In this document: positions 5,376-14,696 of the stretch, one piece after another
Numbering within the stretch: position 1 is the stretch's first letter
How the letters are laid out: each line of letters begins with the position of its first letter
Sequence record: MN106245.1
Length of the DNA stretch: 64,000 nucleotides
Strand: one strand, 5' to 3'
Source: Klebsiella phage EI
The notes under the pieces: model-generated
Told to the model about the DNA's origin: nothing
The model's database searches: none
What the model saw: the letters and a program-made list of their open reading frames with translations, nothing else
Program-made: the position numbers and the translations under genes

Positions 5376-5800
5376 TGTTGATACTCCCTGAAAATTTCGA
5401 ATTAGTTATCGAGAACGTTGAAAGCAAAATTCAAGAAGCTCAGGGCCGCATAGACCATTTGTCTAAAGCATTCGATAAAGACGGTATAAATACAATTGTA
5501 GAGAACATGATGGCTAGCGAAACCGAACTGGCCATCGCAATGGGCGCTCTCAATGAAGATATGCAACTTAATGAATTTATCGTTAAGCACGTCAATAGCC
5601 GCGGTGAAGTGACCCGCCTTAAAGACCGCAAAACTCGTGAGCGTAATGCTTATCAAACTACTGGTCTTTCTAAATCGAAGCGCCGTCAAATTGCTCGAAA
5701 AGCGGTCAAATCTAAACGGGCGAACCCGAGCGTGATAACTCGTGGTATTCGCAAACAAAAGAAAGCTATTAAACGCCGTCAAGCACTAGGACTGAGCTAA
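5375..5800 (+). CDS. 68: prohead core protein gp68
   Basis: 141 aa, the T4 gp68 size; ATGA overlap with gene 67; position. Confidence 0.8.
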
Positions 5801-6465
5801 TGTCAAACGTCAATGAACAACTCTTAATTGAGAACTGGGGAATACCGGGTGAAATCATTGATGGAAAACCTATGCTCGAATCGTTTGAACAGCCTTCAGA
5901 CGGGTCGAGCGGTTTAAAGCCAGGGCTGTATATTGAAGGTATTTTCCTTCAAGCCGAAGTGGTAAACCGTAATAAGCGGTTGTATCCTAAAGCTGTCCTA
6001 GAGCGTGCCATTGACCGGTATATAACCGAACAAGTTAAAACTAAGCAGTCATTAGGAGAACTAAATCATCCTCCTCGTGCAAACGTCGACCCAATGCAAG
6101 CTGCTATCATTATTGAGGATATGTGGTGGAAGGGTAATAACGTTTATGGACGCGCACGTGTCATCGAAGGTGACAACGGACCGGGTGATAAATTGGCTGC
6201 TAACATCCGAGCAGGGTGGATTCCTGGAGTGTCTAGTAGAGGCCTGGGCACATTAAAAGATTCAGGTAAAGGATATAACATCGTACAAGAAGGTTTTCGC
6301 CTGACGGTAGGTGTTGATGCAGTTTGGGGTCCCTCAGCTCCAGATGCGTTTGTAGCACCGCGAGAAATTCGTGAGTCTACAGAAAAGGTAGAAGCAACTG
6401 CCAAGATGAATGCTGATAAAGCATTTACCGCTCTAATCGAGAGCCTAGAAAAGCATTATAAATAA
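5800..6465 (+). CDS. 21: prohead core scaffold protein and protease gp21
   Basis: ...LIENWGIPGEIIDGKPMLES...LYPK...LGELNHPPRANVDPMQAAIIIEDMWWKGN... is near-identical to T4 gp21. Confidence 0.95.
   Translation: MSNVNEQLLIENWGIPGEIIDGKPMLESFEQPSDGSSGLKPGLYIEGIFLQAEVVNRNKRLYPKAVLERAIDRYITEQVKTKQSLGELNHPPRANVDPMQAAIIIEDMWWKGNNVYGRARVIEGDNGPGDKLAANIRAGWIPGVSSRGLGTLKDSGKGYNIVQEGFRLTVGVDAVWGPSAPDAFVAPREIRESTEKVEATAKMNADKAFTALIESLEKHYK
6457..6464 (+). promoter_or_regulatory. late promoter TATAAATA upstream of gene 22
   Basis: Exact TATAAATA 30 nt before the gp22 ATG. Confidence 0.55.
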
Positions 6466-6493: not shown

Positions 6494-7300
6494 ATGCTTA
6501 AAGAACTTCTGATGACCGAAGCTCAGACTATTGATGCTAAAGTCGAACTAGATAGCATTTTCGAATCAGTTGAACTGTCTGCCGATGTTAAGGCTAAGTT
6601 TGAAACTGTTTACGAAACTGCTGTAAAAGCCGCCGCTGTAAAGCTGGCTGAATCTCACATCGAAAAAATCGCCACCCTGGCCGAAGAAAAAGTCGAAGAA
6701 GAAAAGGAAAAAGCTGAGAAAAAAATCACTGAATCGGCCGCTAAGTTCCTCGACCACGTTGCCAAAGAATGGCTTGCCGAAAACAAACTGGCTGTAGATC
6801 GTGGTATTAAAGCTGACTTATTCGAATCCATGGTTGTCGGTCTGAAAGATCTGTTCGTCGAACATAACGTTGTGGTTCCAGAAGATGCTGTAGATGTTGT
6901 TGCAGAACTTCAAGAAGAAATCGCTGAACAGAAAGCTGAAACTGCGCGTCTGTTTGAAGAAGTAAACATGCGCGATGCTTATATCAATTACGTTCAACGC
7001 GAAACTGCTATGAACGAAGCTACCCGCGACTTAACTGAATCCCAGAAAGAGAAAGTTATTTCTCTGACTGAAGGTTTGGAATATTCTGATGCATTCGGTA
7101 CTAAACTGGCCGCCATCGTAGAAATGGTACAGTCCTCCGCTGAAGCTTCAGCAATTGTCGAAAGTGCTGATATAAATACTATTGACAAAGATGCTGAGGG
7201 TCTTAACTTCACTGTCGAAGCTGTAGAACCCGAAGAAACTCCTAAACAATCCGGTGGCCTGATGGCTGCATATGTCGCTTCAGCGGCTCGTATTTCTTAA
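6494..7300 (+). CDS. 22: prohead core scaffold protein gp22
   Basis: 268 aa, acidic, E/K-rich and helical; position between genes 21 and 23. Confidence 0.9.
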   Translation: MLKELLMTEAQTIDAKVELDSIFESVELSADVKAKFETVYETAVKAAAVKLAESHIEKIATLAEEKVEEEKEKAEKKITESAAKFLDHVAKEWLAENKLAVDRGIKADLFESMVVGLKDLFVEHNVVVPEDAVDVVAELQEEIAEQKAETARLFEEVNMRDAYINYVQRETAMNEATRDLTESQKEKVISLTEGLEYSDAFGTKLAAIVEMVQSSAEASAIVESADINTIDKDAEGLNFTVEAVEPEETPKQSGGLMAAYVASAARIS

Positions 7301-7320: not shown

Positions 7321-8886
7321 ATGAAAACTAACAAACTCGTAGAAAAATGGACTCCGCTGCTTGAAGGTGAAGGTCTACCGGAAATCGTTGGCGCCGGTAA
7401 GAAAGCACTGATTGCAAAAATTATGGAAACCCAGGAAGCAGCTATTCAGACTGAACAGGCTTTCCGTGACGAAAAAATTGCTGAAGCTTTTGGTTCTTTC
7501 CTGAGCGAAGCAGAAATTGGCGGTGACCACGGTTACGATGCTCAGAATATCGCAGCAGGCCAGACCTCTAGTGCTATCACTCAGATCGGCCCGGCAGTAA
7601 TGGGTATGGTTCGTCGTGCTATTCCTAATCTGATTGCTTTTGATATCTGCGGTGTTCAGCCTATGTCCAGCCCTACCGGCCAGGTATTTGCACTGCGTGC
7701 AGTATACGGTAAAGATCCGATTGCTCCAGGTGCTAAAGAAGCTTTCCATCCGATGTTTGCTCCGGATGCAATGTATTCAGGCCAGGGTGCTACCGCTCAG
7801 GGTCGTGCATTCGCTGAAATTAAAGCAGGCACTGAAATCACCGAAGGTGATATTGTTAAGCATGTATTCCAGGAAACCGGGATTGCTTACTTCCAGGCTG
7901 TTGAAACCGTAACCCCGGGAGCTGCCGCTAACGCCGCCGCACTGGATGCAGTTGTTATGGGTCTGGTTGAAGCCGGTAAACTGGCTGAACTGGCCGAAGG
8001 TATGGCTACTTCTATCGCTGAACTGCAGGAAGGCTTCAATGGTTCCAAAGACAATCCGTGGAACGAAATGGGCTTCCGTATCGATAAGCAAGTTATCGAA
8101 GCTAAATCTCGTCAGCTGAAAGCTCAGTATTCCATCGAACTGGCACAGGATCTGCGCGCTGTCCACGGTATGGATGCAGATGCCGAACTGAGTTCTATTC
8201 TGGCTACTGAAATTATGCTGGAAATCAACCGTGAAGTTGTTGACTGGATCAACTACTCTGCTCAGCCTGGTAAAACCGGCATGACCCAGACCATTGGTTC
8301 TAAAGCAGGCGTGTTCGACTTCCAGGATCCGATTGATATCCGTGGTGCTCGTTGGGCCGGTGAAAGCTTTAAAGCTCTCCTGTTCCAGATTGACAAAGAA
8401 TCCGCTGAAATCGCTCGTCAGACCGGTCGCGGTGAAGGTAACTTCATTATCGCTTCCCGTAACGTTGTAAACGCACTGGCTGCTACTGATTCTGGTATCA
8501 CCTATGCTGCACAAGGCCTGGGTAAAGGTTATAACGTTGATACCACTAAATCTGTGTTTGCAGGTGTTCTTGGTGGCAAATACCGCGTCTACATTGACCA
8601 GTATGCTCCGCAGGACTACTTCACCATCGGTTATAAAGGCAGCAACGAAATGGATGCCGGTATCTACTATGCTCCTTACGTTGCGCTGACCCCGCTGCGT
8701 GGTTCCGATCCGAAGAACTTCCAGCCGGTCATGGGCTTCAAAACCCGCTACGGTATTGGTATTAACCCGTTCGCTGATTCTAAACTGCAAGCTCCTGGTG
8801 CACGTATTCAGTCCGGTATGCCGTCCATCGTTAACAGCGTTGGTAAAAACGCCTACTTCCGGCGTGTATGGGTCAAGGGCCTGTAA
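7321..8886 (+). CDS. 23: major capsid protein gp23
   Basis: 521 aa; ...KWTPLLEGEGLPEI...GGDHGYDAQNIAAGQTSSAITQIGPAVMGMVRRAIPNLIAFDICGVQPM... matches T4 gp23 with very high identity. Confidence 0.97.
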   Translation: MKTNKLVEKWTPLLEGEGLPEIVGAGKKALIAKIMETQEAAIQTEQAFRDEKIAEAFGSFLSEAEIGGDHGYDAQNIAAGQTSSAITQIGPAVMGMVRRAIPNLIAFDICGVQPMSSPTGQVFALRAVYGKDPIAPGAKEAFHPMFAPDAMYSGQGATAQGRAFAEIKAGTEITEGDIVKHVFQETGIAYFQAVETVTPGAAANAAALDAVVMGLVEAGKLAELAEGMATSIAELQEGFNGSKDNPWNEMGFRIDKQVIEAKSRQLKAQYSIELAQDLRAVHGMDADAELSSILATEIMLEINREVVDWINYSAQPGKTGMTQTIGSKAGVFDFQDPIDIRGARWAGESFKALLFQIDKESAEIARQTGRGEGNFIIASRNVVNALAATDSGITYAAQGLGKGYNVDTTKSVFAGVLGGKYRVYIDQYAPQDYFTIGYKGSNEMDAGIYYAPYVALTPLRGSDPKNFQPVMGFKTRYGIGINPFADSKLQAPGARIQSGMPSIVNSVGKNAYFRRVWVKGL

Positions 8887-8901
8887 TTTTAAAACCTTTA
8901 T

Positions 8902-8931
8902 GGGAGAGCTTTCGCTCTCCCATTTTTGTTT
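8902..8931 (+). terminator. rho-independent terminator after gene 23
   Basis: gggagagc-tttc-gctctccc hairpin followed by ATTTTTGTTT. Confidence 0.7.
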
Positions 8932-8940
8932 GTAGACCTT

Positions 8941-8948
8941 TATAAATA
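8941..8948 (+). promoter_or_regulatory. late promoter TATAAATA upstream of gene 24
   Basis: Exact TATAAATA 28 nt before the gp24 ATG. Confidence 0.6.
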
Positions 8949-8975
8949 GAATTATATCAACCCGAGGAAAGCGCA

Positions 8976-10247
8976 ATGGCTAAAATTAACGAACTTCTGC
9001 GCGAATCAACTGTAACGAATAGCATCCAATATGGTCGCCCGAATCTCGTTGCATTGACCCGCGCTACTACTAAATTGGTTTACACTGACATCGTCGCCGA
9101 ACAACGTACTACTCAGCCTGTTGCTGCTCTGTATGGTGTTAAATACGAAACCCCAGACGATGAACTCTCTTTTAAAACAGGTGCTACTTACGGCGGTGCT
9201 GCTTCTGCATCTGACCGGGATAGTATAGAAGAAATTACTTCTGCAACACACTCTGTGACGGCAGGGACACTTTATAAGTATAACAATGTGGTTTATAAGG
9301 CCTTAGAATCGGGTGCTCTAAACGGCGCTACTATTGACGAAGCTCTGTCTGAAGCCCTTATCACTTTAAAGCTTCGTTTTTATTCTGAGGCAGCTGAAAC
9401 GGTTAAATTTGAATCTAATAATGTAGAAATTAGTTCTGCTAATTTCACTGTTAACAAATGGAACGCTCGAGTTAAAACCCGTAAGCTGAAAACTTCTCTG
9501 ACTGTTGAACTGGCCCAGGATCTAGAAGCTAACGGCTTTGATGCTAACATGTTTCTTGAAGATCTTCTTGCAACAACAATGGCCGATGAAATCAATAAGG
9601 ACGTTCTTCAATCCTTGATTACAGTTTCTAAACGTTATAAAGTTGCAGGCGTTTCTGACGACGGATCTGTTGATTTATCTTACTCAAGCGCCCCTGAAGC
9701 GGCCCGTAAACTTTACCAATTAGTTTGCGAAATGAACAGCCATATTCAAAGTAAAACTTCTTATTCTGGAACCTATGTCGTTGCTAGTGCTCGTGCTGCT
9801 GCTGTTCTGGCTGGGTCCGGATGGCTGAAACACCGCCCTGAAGATGACGAATACCTTGCAGAATCTGCGTACGGGTTCCTGGCTAACGGTCTTCCGGTAT
9901 TTGTTGATGTTAATAGCCCATTAGATTATGTCACTGTAGGTGTTAAAGAATCCTTCGGCGGTAGTGAAGTTATTGGATCTTTGTTCTATGCACCTTATAC
10001 TGAAGGTCTTGATCTTGATAATGACGAACATGTCGGCACCTTTAAGGTAGTTGTCGACCCTGATTCTTTACAGCCTACTATTTCGTTGATGGTTCGGTAC
10101 GCGTTGTCTGCTAATCCATATACCGTTGCTAAAGATGAAAAAGAAGCTCGAGATATTGATGCAACCAATATGGATAAGATGGCAGGTCAAAGCGACATGT
10201 CGGTCCTTCTGGGTGTTAAACTCCCTGCTATTTTAAGTGAGCCATAA
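8976..10247 (+). CDS. 24: head vertex protein gp24 (copy 1)
   Basis: 423 aa; gp23/gp24-fold paralog downstream of gene 23 as in T4; contains the conserved ...KLKTSLTVELAQDLEANGFDA... block. Confidence 0.9.
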   Translation: MAKINELLRESTVTNSIQYGRPNLVALTRATTKLVYTDIVAEQRTTQPVAALYGVKYETPDDELSFKTGATYGGAASASDRDSIEEITSATHSVTAGTLYKYNNVVYKALESGALNGATIDEALSEALITLKLRFYSEAAETVKFESNNVEISSANFTVNKWNARVKTRKLKTSLTVELAQDLEANGFDANMFLEDLLATTMADEINKDVLQSLITVSKRYKVAGVSDDGSVDLSYSSAPEAARKLYQLVCEMNSHIQSKTSYSGTYVVASARAAAVLAGSGWLKHRPEDDEYLAESAYGFLANGLPVFVDVNSPLDYVTVGVKESFGGSEVIGSLFYAPYTEGLDLDNDEHVGTFKVVVDPDSLQPTISLMVRYALSANPYTVAKDEKEARDIDATNMDKMAGQSDMSVLLGVKLPAILSEP

Positions 10248-11515
10248 TGAAAATAGATCGATTAATTCAAGAAAGTACTTTAACCTCTTCTAATCAGGCC
10301 GGGAGGCCTGATTTACTTTCGTACACCAAAGCAACTAATAAAAGAATCTTTAAGGCCCTCGTAGCAGAACAACGCACTCGTCAACCTGTTGCCGCTTTAT
10401 ATGGTATCAGAGTTCTGAACCCTGAAGATAATATGACTTATGTAGGCGGTGCTACATTCGGTGGTCTTATGGGCCCTGAATCCAGAGCCAATACTCCAGA
10501 ATTCGTCGGCCAGGCACCGTATAATAAAGGTGACTTATTCAAACACGAATCTGTCATCTTTAAAGCTCTTGAAGATAATCCTTTTGCTGGATCTACTGAA
10601 ACCAGTCATGACGAGCTTATTTCTGAAGCTATTGCGGCCGGAACTATCCGCATGGTTTCTGATGCCGCTCCAACTGCACAGTTTGAAGCTGGTCACCCTG
10701 AAATAGCTGAAGCCGGGTTCCGTGTCGATAAATGGCAAACTACGGTTAAATCCCGCAAACTTAAAACTTCTGTTACTGTTGAATTAGCCCAAGATCTAGA
10801 AGCTAATGGATTCGATGCCCCTGATTTCTTAGACGATATGCTAGGTATCCAGATGGCTGAAGAAGTAAACAAAGACATTCTTCAATCGTTGGTTACAGTT
10901 TCTAGTAGGTTTAAAGTTCACGGTGTGTCATCTAAAGGGGTTTTAGACCTTACAGATCCTAAATATGATAACGCCCAGGATCGTGCACGTACGCTGTATT
11001 ACTACATGTGCGAGATGAATTCTGCCGTCCAACGCAATACTTCGTTCGCTGGGACATATGCCGCAGCTAGTTCTCGCTGTGCGGCTATTTTAGCTGCTTC
11101 AGGCTGGGTTGAAAAGCGAGATGACGGTGATGAGTTAGCCTACGGCTATCTGAAGAATGGTCTGCCTCTTTACGCGGATATGAATACGCCGGCAGAATAT
11201 GTTATTGTTGGTGTTAATGCAGATATGGGTGAAGGCCAGACGGTGGCATCATTATATTATGCGCCTTATACTGAAGGTATGGATGTAGAAGATGATATTG
11301 ATCAAATGGGCGAATTCAAGATAGTTGTCGACCCTGATTCTTTACAGCCTACTATTTCTTTACTCGCACGGTATGCTTTGTCTGCTAATCCGTACACTGT
11401 TGCTAAAGATGAAAAAGAAGCTCGAATCATCGATGGTTCTGATATGGATAAGATGGCTGGTCAGAGTCTATTAAGTTCTTACCTCGGCGTTAAGTTACCA
11501 CCGCTCGAGAAATAA
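10247..11515 (+). CDS. second gp24-like head vertex protein (tandem paralog)
   Basis: 422 aa; TAATG overlap with copy 1; shares the internal ...KLKTS(L/V)TVELAQDLEANGFDA... block and a near-identical 3' end (VVDPDSLQPTISL..RYALSANPYTVAKDEKEAR..D...MDKMAGQS). Confidence 0.9.
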   Translation: MKIDRLIQESTLTSSNQAGRPDLLSYTKATNKRIFKALVAEQRTRQPVAALYGIRVLNPEDNMTYVGGATFGGLMGPESRANTPEFVGQAPYNKGDLFKHESVIFKALEDNPFAGSTETSHDELISEAIAAGTIRMVSDAAPTAQFEAGHPEIAEAGFRVDKWQTTVKSRKLKTSVTVELAQDLEANGFDAPDFLDDMLGIQMAEEVNKDILQSLVTVSSRFKVHGVSSKGVLDLTDPKYDNAQDRARTLYYYMCEMNSAVQRNTSFAGTYAAASSRCAAILAASGWVEKRDDGDELAYGYLKNGLPLYADMNTPAEYVIVGVNADMGEGQTVASLYYAPYTEGMDVEDDIDQMGEFKIVVDPDSLQPTISLLARYALSANPYTVAKDEKEARIIDGSDMDKMAGQSLLSSYLGVKLPPLEK

Positions 11516-11519
11516 AAAT

Positions 11520-11545
11520 GGGAGCCATAAGGCTCCCTTATAAAT
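11520..11545. terminator. bidirectional terminator hairpin between the gp24 paralog (+) and the DprA-like gene (-)
   Basis: gggagcc-ataa-ggctccc stem-loop flanked by A/T runs on both sides. Confidence 0.65.
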
Positions 11546-12083
11546 TAAAAATATCAAACTTTGGCCTATATTTGTCTTCGAATTTTTTAAATACTTCTGA
11601 ATTGTTCAGATTAATACATTTAATACCATACTTTTTAGCTATATCAACTGCAACTCTAGTTCCGCCTTGAACTCTGCCATTTCTAACCGGGGCCCAGTAT
11701 AAAACTAAATCCACAGGGTTTTGACATGATAATCCAAAAACTTGACATGCATTACGAGCAAACAACTTTCTAACTATATCTGAGCAATTTTCCCAGTACG
11801 AGGTAACTGATTGGGCTATTCTATAACTAGCTGTTTGAACGTCCACTGGTAAGTTTTCAAAACTTACAACCCCTAAGCCAACAAAATGGCCACAGAACCC
11901 GTTGTAAGGTATTATCCTCAGAGATTTAGACCTATCATATTTTGCCAGCCAAGCTTCATCTGAACCAGGCGCTCCGCCACTATAAGCTAAATATCCTTTA
12001 TTTGAAAAGTTTTCACCTATAGATGTCATCAAATCAAGAACTTTGCGGGGCGCCTTTCGAGAACCAATCAGCGCCACTCTCAT
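11538..12083 (-). CDS. DprA/Smf-like (SLOG-superfamily) Rossmann-fold protein
   Basis: 181 aa; VALIGSRKAP...YSGGAPGSDEAW...ARN...GGTRVAVDIA resembles the DprA Rossmann domain layout (GS-R, GxxG-D-A glycine loop, RN motif); its ATG overlaps the rnlB stop (TAATG). Confidence 0.5.
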   Translation of the reverse strand: MRVALIGSRKAPRKVLDLMTSIGENFSNKGYLAYSGGAPGSDEAWLAKYDRSKSLRIIPYNGFCGHFVGLGVVSFENLPVDVQTASYRIAQSVTSYWENCSDIVRKLFARNACQVFGLSCQNPVDLVLYWAPVRNGRVQGGTRVAVDIAKKYGIKCINLNNSEVFKKFEDKYRPKFDIFNL

Positions 12084-13889: not shown

Positions 13890-14696
13890 TTATTCCAACA
13901 TCAAGAGCGGACCGGTGAACAAAACACGTCCATTTCTAGATTCTTGGACATCGACTTCAGGGTACTCTTCTAGCATTTTAGCCAGAGTATACCGATGCAG
14001 GTAATAATCACTGTCAGGGTCGTCGAGTTTCCAATCTTTGCCCTCAACAGTCATTCGCTGGATTTCATCCATTACCCACCATCCACACCGGATATAGGCT
14101 GTTCCACGGAACGGTAGAGGATGAATATATGGAAGTTCTCCGTCTGGCTCAGGGGCTACTCTTTTAGTAAAAGCAACAGCAATACCTTTAGTCGCGGTTC
14201 CATTATTATAATCCGGCGCAGAAACCTTTACTTCACAATTAAGTGTGTAGCTAGTTTCCGCTGATTCAGTTAAGGTAATTGTTTTACCTGTTTGGCCTGC
14301 AATAACAGTAGTACCACGTTTCCACACGTAAGCAATGCTTGCTCCAGCCGGCGCCCCGCTAACATCCGCTGTAACTACTTGAGATTGGCCAATTTCTTTA
14401 GAAACTGAAGTTGGGCTCAAAGTTAAAGTAATAGCAGGCATGGTTTTGTTCTTAACCGTCAGAGTAGTTTCTGCTTCGGCCGTTTCAGGATCGCCTTCAG
14501 CCGGAGTGACGGTAGCAACTACTTTAATAGTCTTACTACCTGCAGGTCCTGCAGCAACATACTTCATAGCTGCAGTAACAGAAGATTGCTTTACACCATT
14601 TACAGTCCACACAAATGATTCTGTACCTTCGACAGCAGCACCAGACGTGGTTGCAGTAAAATTAGTTGTGGCCCCAATGACTGCTGAAGCAGCCAA
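13890..14696 (-). CDS. hoc: head outer capsid protein Hoc (shorter than T4 Hoc; start codon uncertain)
   Basis: C-terminal capsid-binding domain ...APEPDGELPYIHPLPFRGTAYIRCGWWVMDEIQRMTVEGKDWKLDDPDSDYYLHRYTL...YPEVDVQESRNG... is near-identical to T4 Hoc; upstream are Ig-like repeats (KTIKVVATVTPAEGDPETAEAETTLTVKNKT). No in-frame ATG near the 5' end; TTG at 14696, and the frame stays open to 14738. Confidence 0.85.
   Translation of the reverse strand: MAASAVIGATTNFTATTSGAAVEGTESFVWTVNGVKQSSVTAAMKYVAAGPAGSKTIKVVATVTPAEGDPETAEAETTLTVKNKTMPAITLTLSPTSVSKEIGQSQVVTADVSGAPAGASIAYVWKRGTTVIAGQTGKTITLTESAETSYTLNCEVKVSAPDYNNGTATKGIAVAFTKRVAPEPDGELPYIHPLPFRGTAYIRCGWWVMDEIQRMTVEGKDWKLDDPDSDYYLHRYTLAKMLEEYPEVDVQESRNGRVLFTGPLLMLE

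Follow-up and report, generated by a model that had tools for sequence, protein, structure and literature searches.

The stretch analyzed here comprises 64,000 nucleotides (nt) of Klebsiella phage EI (sequence record MN106245.1), hereafter the window, and carries on its plus strand a T4-type head-gene cluster in which the capsid vertex gene 24 is present as two adjacent copies, 24a and 24b. According to the list of open reading frames (ORFs), the order is 21-22-23-24a-24b, with gene 21 at 5800-6465, gene 22 at 6494-7300, and gene 23 at 7321-8886. Gene 24a (8976-10247) encodes a canonical T4-type capsid vertex protein of 423 amino acids (aa), and 24b (10247-11515) encodes a deeply diverged gp24 paralog of 422 aa; both lie on the plus strand, and both assignments draw on the ORFs, on matches to Pfam PF07068 and to the T4 gp24 structure 1YUE, and on clade membership. 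The two genes stand head to tail and share a TAATG stop/start overlap, with the TAA of 24a at 10245-10247 and the ATG of 24b at 10247-10249. An earlier sequence-only reading of this locus had recognized both ORFs and their overlap correctly, and had described them as a tandem duplication with homogenized 3' ends, produced by gene conversion or by constraint.

The T4-type late promoter motif TATAAATA was found by motif scan on the plus strand at 8941-8948, 28 nt 5' of the 24a start codon, and is the sole such motif before the gene pair. It occurred 15 times in the window against 5.9 expected, none of them between 24a and 24b, and was present 5' of 24a in 9/9 two-copy phages examined. Directly 3' of 24b, a hairpin scan detected a G+C-rich stem-loop (GGGAGCC..GGCTCCC, 11520-11537; scored on the minus strand by the scan and listed here with no strand), and both phage Marfa and phage PhiKpNIH-6 have an annotated terminator at the corresponding site. 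Because a late promoter is found before 24a only and a terminator follows 24b, 24a-24b is a single late bicistronic transcription unit. In all two-copy phages compared, the 24a stop and 24b start either overlap or are separated by no more than 1 nt, and a weak Shine-Dalgarno-like GTGAG is located within the final 24a codons; given the overlap of stop and start in the window, 24b is probably translated by coupling to 24a. The 89-nt spacer between gene 23 and 24a (8887-8975) also holds a terminator-like stem-loop with a T run, 3' of gene 23 (8900-8923, plus strand; hairpin scan), and a terminator is annotated at the equivalent Marfa position. Gene 24a follows gene 23 directly within the late head-gene cluster and has its own late promoter, and thus occupies the position of gp24. 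A scan for sigma-70 promoters gave 9 matches against a shuffled expectation of 6.1, nothing above expectation, and codon adaptation relative to gp23 (0.449 for 24a, 0.392 for 24b) was uninformative on relative expression.

Both copies belong to the gp24 family. Against PF07068, which has a curated cut-off of 24.4 bits, 24a scored 331 bits (E = 1.4e-98, residues 18-414) and 24b scored 317 bits (E = 3.7e-94, residues 17-414). Matches to 1YUE reached 634 bits for 24a (E = 8.8e-190) and 498 bits for 24b (E = 1.7e-148, residues 2-419), and those to gp23 chains only 41-47 bits, which places both proteins with gp24 and not with gp23. The second copy thus retains the gp23/gp24 fold, the absence of which the sequence-only reading had named as an argument against itself. 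The N-terminus of 24a, MAKINELLRE|S, matches the T4 gp24 propeptide site exactly, and 24b begins with MKIDRLIQE|S; an (L/I)xE|S motif near residue 10 was kept in every 24a and 24b sequence aligned, which points to a short propeptide in both. In T4, the prohead protease trims the first ten residues of gp24, and the gp23 prodomain has 65 residues (PMC9958956). We consider the fold settled because identity to the solved structure is 55-68% over the full length, and, as judged from these alignments, both genes encode complete HK97-fold vertex-type capsid proteins.

The 24a and 24b proteins are 55% identical to each other (230/415). Pairwise ratios of nonsynonymous to synonymous divergence (dN/dS) among orthologs were 0.03-0.16 for each copy, and 0.02-0.10 when 24b orthologs were taken alone; by this measure, strong purifying selection has acted on both 24a and 24b from a time that precedes the separation of at least six phage genera. 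Forty-seven alignment columns, spread along the protein, were fixed within 24a, fixed within 24b, and different between the two, and T4 gp24 has the 24a state at 34 of these 47. Such fixed differences are compatible with stable functional differentiation. Relative to T4 gp24, 24b also carries indels of +3 residues near 239, -4 near 298, and +1 to 3 near 352.

By alignment, the alanine codon of the RYALSANPY motif (10101-10103 in 24a and 11375-11377 in 24b) corresponds to A380 of T4/T6 gp24 and is wild-type in both copies. The substitution A380V in gp24 lets phage T6 escape type IV Thoeris (PMC13243611), which involves the vertex protein in triggering a host defense and raises the idea that 24b is a decoy or spare against defenses that sense this protein, not a capsid building block. 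We regard this as very improbable: the fold of 24b is complete and its protease site and lattice-core blocks are kept, it is coexpressed with 24a from the late promoter, and its dN/dS is as low as that of a structural protein (0.02-0.10), and RYALSANPY with the T6 escape position is found in both copies, so that b would be sensed like a.

The window belongs to the genus Marfavirus. Identity in the region of the pair amounts to 96.7% with Klebsiella phages HMGUkp2 and Clarke_MM3, to 96.3% with Marfa, and to about 91.5% with the F48 group, also Marfavirus. Both genes are annotated as capsid vertex proteins in the HMGUkp2, Clarke_MM3, Marfa, and F48-group records, and the Marfa counterparts of both are 98-99% identical to window 24a and 24b. 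Looking for T4-like genomes annotated with a second gene 24, as the sequence-only reading had suggested, recovered the pair in several genera. In JS98 (Dhakavirus, GenBank EF469154) it is labeled genes 24a and 24b, and in VR5/VR20 an equivalent pair bears the label 'capsid vertex protein II'. Tandem pairs are also annotated in Salmonella phages Melville, STML-198, and S16 (Gelderlandvirus), in P896 (Gaprivervirus), in Enterobacter/Kosakonia phages CIP9, MY742, and 305 (Kanagawavirus), and in Erwinia phage Cronus (MH059636; L036, 2213-4778). In total, 116 phage records matched 24b (tblastn, E<1e-150), the genera with the pair being Marfavirus, Gelderlandvirus, Dhakavirus, Gaprivervirus, and Kanagawavirus, plus Erwinia phage Cronus, and in IMG/VR the a-b tandem was found in 17 of 21 related loci.

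The duplication has been published for S16 and Melville, with a one-line mention in the Melville announcement (PMC6486254). The pair goes unmentioned in the Marfa and F48 papers, the text of the paper on CkP1 (S16-like) does not discuss the vertex genes, and gp169 is the single vertex protein in the virion proteomics table of Morganella phage MP1. The gene pair is real and already known and annotated. An assembly artifact, in which an expanded repeat mimics a duplication, was the second outcome that the sequence-only reading had set against itself; we reject it as having practically no chance of being true, since the copies are only 55% identical in protein and the same arrangement recurs in 116 records sequenced independently of one another, as well as in viral contigs of IMG/VR derived from metagenomes. 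Separately, two Aeromonas phages with three places per record were considered as further duplications and rejected, being single genes split by the record start.

In protein trees computed by neighbor-joining on Kimura distances, the 24a copies formed a clade at 100% bootstrap that was nested with the single-copy gp24 of T4, CC31, and PM2 at 97%. The 24b copies, including that of Cronus, formed a separate 100% clade on a long stem, outside the clade of 24a plus T4 gp24, and the a and b subtrees were congruent. Protein identities were 54-57% between a and b, 56-58% between b and T4 gp24, 61-65% between b and RCIP0032 gp24, and 68-71% between a and T4 gp24. The term tandem duplication therefore suits the anatomy of the locus but misleads on its age, as 24b resembles 24a no more than it resembles T4 gp24.

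Among the tandem gp24 pairs found, that of Cronus is the most divergent, with 65% identity between its b copy and window 24b; its a copy is 67% identical to T4 and RCIP0032 gp24 versus 63% to window 24a. When Cronus was added to the tree, Cronus_b was basal in the b clade (100%) and Cronus_a basal to the clade of a, PM2/PEi20, and T4/CC31 (87%), which pushes the origin of the pair before the T4/JS98 split. Judged from these topologies, the a/b split goes back at least to the divergence of T4-type from JS98-type phages, and the pair, already present before at least six phage genera separated, consists of old, vertically inherited paralogs.

The pair would have originated either by an ancient duplication followed by at least three losses of b, or by acquisition from a distant T4-like phage. 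Under the latter, an ancestor would have picked up 24b in a recombination event with a distant T4-like phage, the gene coming to lie behind the resident gene 24 with no duplication in place, and at least three independent losses of b (in the T4/CC31, PM2/PEi20, and L039 lineages) would not be required. This possibility, which we hold as a tentative minority view, draws on the greater proximity of 24b to Jiaodavirus-type gp24 (61-65%) than to its neighbor 24a (54-57%), on a weak grouping with RCIP0032/TG1-type gp24 (62-66%), and on a 4-residue insert that is missing from 24b and from the Aeromonas-phage outgroups and present in all other Tevenvirinae gp24 aligned. Yet the search turned up no phage whose only gene 24 is of the b type, the next match to b in the phage collection standing at 60.8%, and Cronus is basal on both the a and b sides, as vertical inheritance of the pair predicts; moreover, support is low throughout, and long branches are drawn to RCIP0032, whose branch is the shortest. 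Because the grouping of b with Jiaodavirus/Tegunavirus-type gp24 reaches only 62-66%, either origin may apply. As a weaker side reading, T4-type and Jiaodavirus/Tegunavirus-type gp24 might be out-paralogs that arose by differential loss of an ancient a/b pair.

The similarity between the copies is uneven along the genes. Their last ~190 nt, which the sequence-only reading had called almost identical, proved not to be: 10056-10247 matches 11328-11515 at 143/192 positions (74.5%). Without gaps, the best block is 10017-10192 in 24a with its partner at 11291-11466 in 24b (both plus strand), 176 nt at 80% identity, and over the last 52 nt identity is down to 35%. The internal block that had been described as shared does exist, with 77% nt identity between 9444-9544 in 24a (..RKLKTSLTVELAQDLEANGFDA..) and 10718-10818 in 24b, both on the plus strand.

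Both blocks are conserved across the family. The C-terminal motif VVDPxSLQPxIxLxxRYALSANPYTVAKDEKEARIIDxxDMDKMAG was conserved in all Tevenvirinae gp24 aligned, including those of single-copy T4, CC31, and PM2, as was the internal motif SRKLKTxxTVELAQDLEANGFDA, which can be aligned with gp23 too. Identity between a and b at the nucleotide level followed the same profile in 9/9 two-copy genomes, the N-terminal part being at 0.50-0.58, the internal block at 0.72-0.76, the C-terminal block at 0.72-0.80, and the rest at about 0.61. Within the C-terminal block, 24a was 0.73-0.80 identical to gp24 of other genera and 0.79 identical to its own 24b. The proportion of synonymous differences (pS) between a and b was saturated (0.65-0.75) in the N-terminal part, the internal block, and mid-gene, and the value of 0.65 in the internal block indicates conservation at the protein level only. 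Further 3', pS was 0.51 in alignment columns 389-412 and 0.85 in columns 413-425; outside columns 374-412, synonymous sites are saturated. Because the blocks are conserved in single-copy gp24 and synonymous sites are saturated, we attribute most of the uneven similarity to purifying selection on the structural core.

One tract stands apart from this pattern. The 32-mer GTCGACCCTGATTCTTTACAGCCTACTATTTC, which had been reported as a shared opening of the two 3' ends, is present exactly twice in the window (10053-10084 and 11327-11358; 0 expected by chance); the start coordinates reported for it were off by 1-3 nt, and the true exact identity is a 37-nt run that joins 10048-10084 in 24a to 11322-11358 in 24b (both plus strand) and is a candidate short conversion tract. 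In simulations conditioned on the protein alignment and the codon usage of both genes, a run of at least 37 nt had P = 0.0017-0.0018. Identical codons numbered 26 of 34 in columns 374-412 versus 15.1 expected (P = 0.0002), and 84 of 175 versus 78.8 in columns 1-373, at expectation (P = 0.23). In columns 374-388, which correspond to the 37-nt run, pS was 0.22 in the window, 0.31 in Marfa, and 0.48 in F48, and 0.54-0.76 in other genera. Quartets over the same columns, in which Marfavirus was compared with Melville, JS98, P896, and CIP9, favored the concerted topology (0/5/0, 1/4/0, 1/5/1, and 0/4/0 sites for orthology/concerted/third, respectively); outside the tract, orthology prevailed over the concerted topology by about 4-5 to 1. 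The excess codon identity spans about 115 nt and is found in the Marfa-like lineage only.

Similar runs occur in a few other genomes at other places. Marfa has a significant 44-nt run located further 3' (P<0.0003), and Kosakonia phage 305 a 32-nt run in the internal block (P = 0.008). In Melville (L002), a 41-nt exact 24a/24b run falls at columns ~215-228, in the MADEINKDVLQSLITVS region, a different conserved block (P<0.0003), and is taken here as an independent short conversion tract in another genus. Five of the nine two-copy genomes had no significant run.

These five genomes would fit an explanation by protein constraint and shared codon preference throughout, with the 37-nt run a product of chance and no exchange of DNA, and so would the location of the run's twelve residues (VVDPDSLQPTIS) within the most conserved gp24 segment and the noise of site-by-site polarization within Marfavirus. 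We consider this explanation unlikely, though less so than the decoy: the simulations are conditioned on protein and codon usage and still yield the low P values given above for the window, Marfa, Melville, and phage 305, and cross-genome a-versus-b pairs, which are under equal constraint, never gave exact runs longer than 26 nt (median 16). Codon identity in columns 374-412, 0.76 in the window and 0.79 in Marfa, likewise exceeded that of all 60 cross-genus a-versus-b pairs (mean 0.51, maximum 0.64).

The opposite extreme, in which ongoing gene conversion homogenizes the whole 3' ends over the last ~190 nt, would account for the exact run, the raised codon identity in columns 374-412, and the concerted quartets in columns 374-388. 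It is, however, largely refuted by the comparisons, and we give it little credence. Beyond the low identity of the ranges concerned and of the last 52 nt, and the rise of pS after column 388, identity is 78% in the 79 nt that follow the exact run, orthology is favored by quartets in columns 389-425 and the tail, and directly after the run the paralog-specific differences M versus L and V versus A, fixed across genera, are retained. In addition, the block is as similar between 24a and the single-copy gp24 of other genera (0.73-0.80). Paralogs were not more alike than orthologs over the last ~190 nt; the concerted signal is confined to columns 374-388, and partly to 412, and columns 413-440 and the diagnostic residues follow orthology. 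Reduced pS, a local switch of topology, and restriction to one lineage, observed together at few sites, fit short-tract conversion between the copies that is sporadic and local and does not homogenize the ends. Of the two causes proposed by the sequence-only reading, constraint thus holds for most of the similarity and conversion for a short tract, but the homogenized 3' ends do not hold, the diagnostic residues and the tail being distinct.

Taken together, we favor, with a probability of roughly 0.78, an old 24a/24b pair expressed as one late unit, the similarity of which is due mainly to constraint with a minor contribution from Marfa-like short-tract conversion. The late promoter before 24a would drive both genes, with 24b read by coupling via the TAATG, and both proteins would be incorporated as vertex subunits during prohead assembly, with the prohead protease trimming them. 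Protein constraint on the internal and C-terminal blocks, the slowest-evolving parts of every gp24, would form the main layer of similarity; in a minor layer, short-tract conversion in Marfa-like phages would have made the 37 nt identical and lifted codon identity over ~115 nt, its tract being interrupted by the residues that stay paralog-specific. Several points weigh against this account. The trees are neighbor-joining and not maximum likelihood, and the position of the b clade next to RCIP0032/TG1-type gp24 has 62-66% support only. The conversion signal comes from at most five informative quartet sites in a 45-nt tract, which are shared between comparisons, and the direction of transfer could not be polarized, as the site-by-site comparison with the invariant paralog within Marfavirus was too noisy. 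Finally, a literature search found no virion proteomics or structure for any two-copy phage, so that the incorporation of both proteins is inferred.

In the virion, pentamers of T4-type gp24 occupy the eleven non-portal vertices, and T4 needs one vertex protein and can bypass even that. Against this background, it is conceivable, if speculative, that 24a and 24b are both present in every capsid, either at different places (one of them, for example, at the apical vertex or in one ring of five vertices of the prolate head, and the other at the remaining vertices) or in mixed pentamers; the two might also serve under different conditions. If both are present in every capsid, the 47 fixed-different residues, maintained despite occasional conversion, would mark position-specific contacts.

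Side observations were made within the pair and around it. Gene 24a (8976-10247) is mosaic relative to F48 (L014, 3159-4433), with a synonymous difference of 0.19 in the first 170 codons and 0.46-0.83 further 3', which suggests recombination between Marfaviruses inside 24a. At ~11395-11440 in 24b, eight to nine synonymous changes are common to HMGUkp2 (some to Clarke_MM3 or kv8) and not to Marfa/F48. A segD-type homing endonuclease gene lies between 23 and 24(a) in some relatives, namely PhiKpNIH-6 (L020, 1914-2576) and also T4 (L009, 1733-2395) and TG1 (L011, 897-2411), and is absent in the window. Double-strand breaks at this site could be a driver of the short conversion tracts. Antisense to gene 23, a 399-aa open frame on the minus strand (7777-8976) shows no sign of being a gene.

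On the 3' side of 24b, the minus strand carries a DprA-like ORF, rnlB, and hoc. The first of these is a 181-aa ORF (11538-12083) between 24b and rnlB with a sub-threshold match to Pfam DNA_processg_A (DprA; E = 1e-3, 18.8 bits versus a cut-off of 29.6), and its homologs in relatives are labeled 'DprA-like DNA recombination-mediator protein'. This slot after 24b is variable, being occupied by an unrelated 792-nt plus-strand gene in Marfa and by a 477-nt ORF in Melville, and empty in JS98. The hoc-like ORF (13890-14696, minus strand) has Ig-like repeats and at most 268 aa, and the Marfa hoc coding sequence is 1416 nt long (about 471 aa); the number of Hoc Ig domains seems, from these lengths, to differ among very close relatives.

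The closest known counterparts of the pair are 24a/24b of JS98 and the pairs of S16/Melville, VR5/VR20, and Marfa/F48, all of which have the same order of 23, 24a, and 24b, followed by rnlB on the opposite strand. JS98-like pairs also share a late promoter before 24a only and an a stop abutting the b start. Window 24a and 24b are 72% and 78% identical in protein to their respective JS98 orthologs, which together with the congruent subtrees identifies them as orthologous. The stop and start are adjacent in JS98 and overlap as TAATG in Marfa-like phages; otherwise nothing essential differs, except that identical tracts of 37-44 nt in the 3' block are found in the Marfa-like lineage only. Compared with T4 gp24 (1YUE, 5VF3), both window copies can be aligned over the full length and have the same propeptide site and the same place after gene 23, but T4 has one copy, and 24b is 56% identical to it with indels of its own.

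The gp23/gp24 pair is itself thought to derive from an earlier duplication (review PMC9958956). It is likewise a duplication within PF07068 with specialization in the capsid lattice, and the internal block is common to gp23, 24a, and 24b; however, gp23 and gp24 are ~25% identical with demonstrated hexamer and pentamer roles, whereas 24a and 24b are 55% identical, and a division of labor between them would be hypothetical. With concerted evolution by short-tract conversion, the window shares an excess of within-genome identity, lower synonymous divergence, and a local topology switch. It differs in that the tracts are ~30-45 nt of exact identity (at most ~115 nt of raised identity), lineage-specific, and leave the diagnostic residues intact, in genes that otherwise evolve independently.

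As it stands, the finding has little significance in itself, the pair being annotated in near-identical genomes and noted in print. What is added here is that the pair is ancient, found in at least six genera with 24b outside the clade of 24a and T4 gp24, that strong purifying selection acts on both copies, and that the similar blocks reflect family-wide structural constraint with only sporadic conversion tracts of 30-45 nt. Two vertex proteins are kept by a large clade of T4-like phages that includes therapy candidates against Klebsiella, E. coli, and Salmonella. If the two proteins do occupy different vertices, the pair would be a case of position-specific specialization of pentamer subunits in a tailed-phage capsid.

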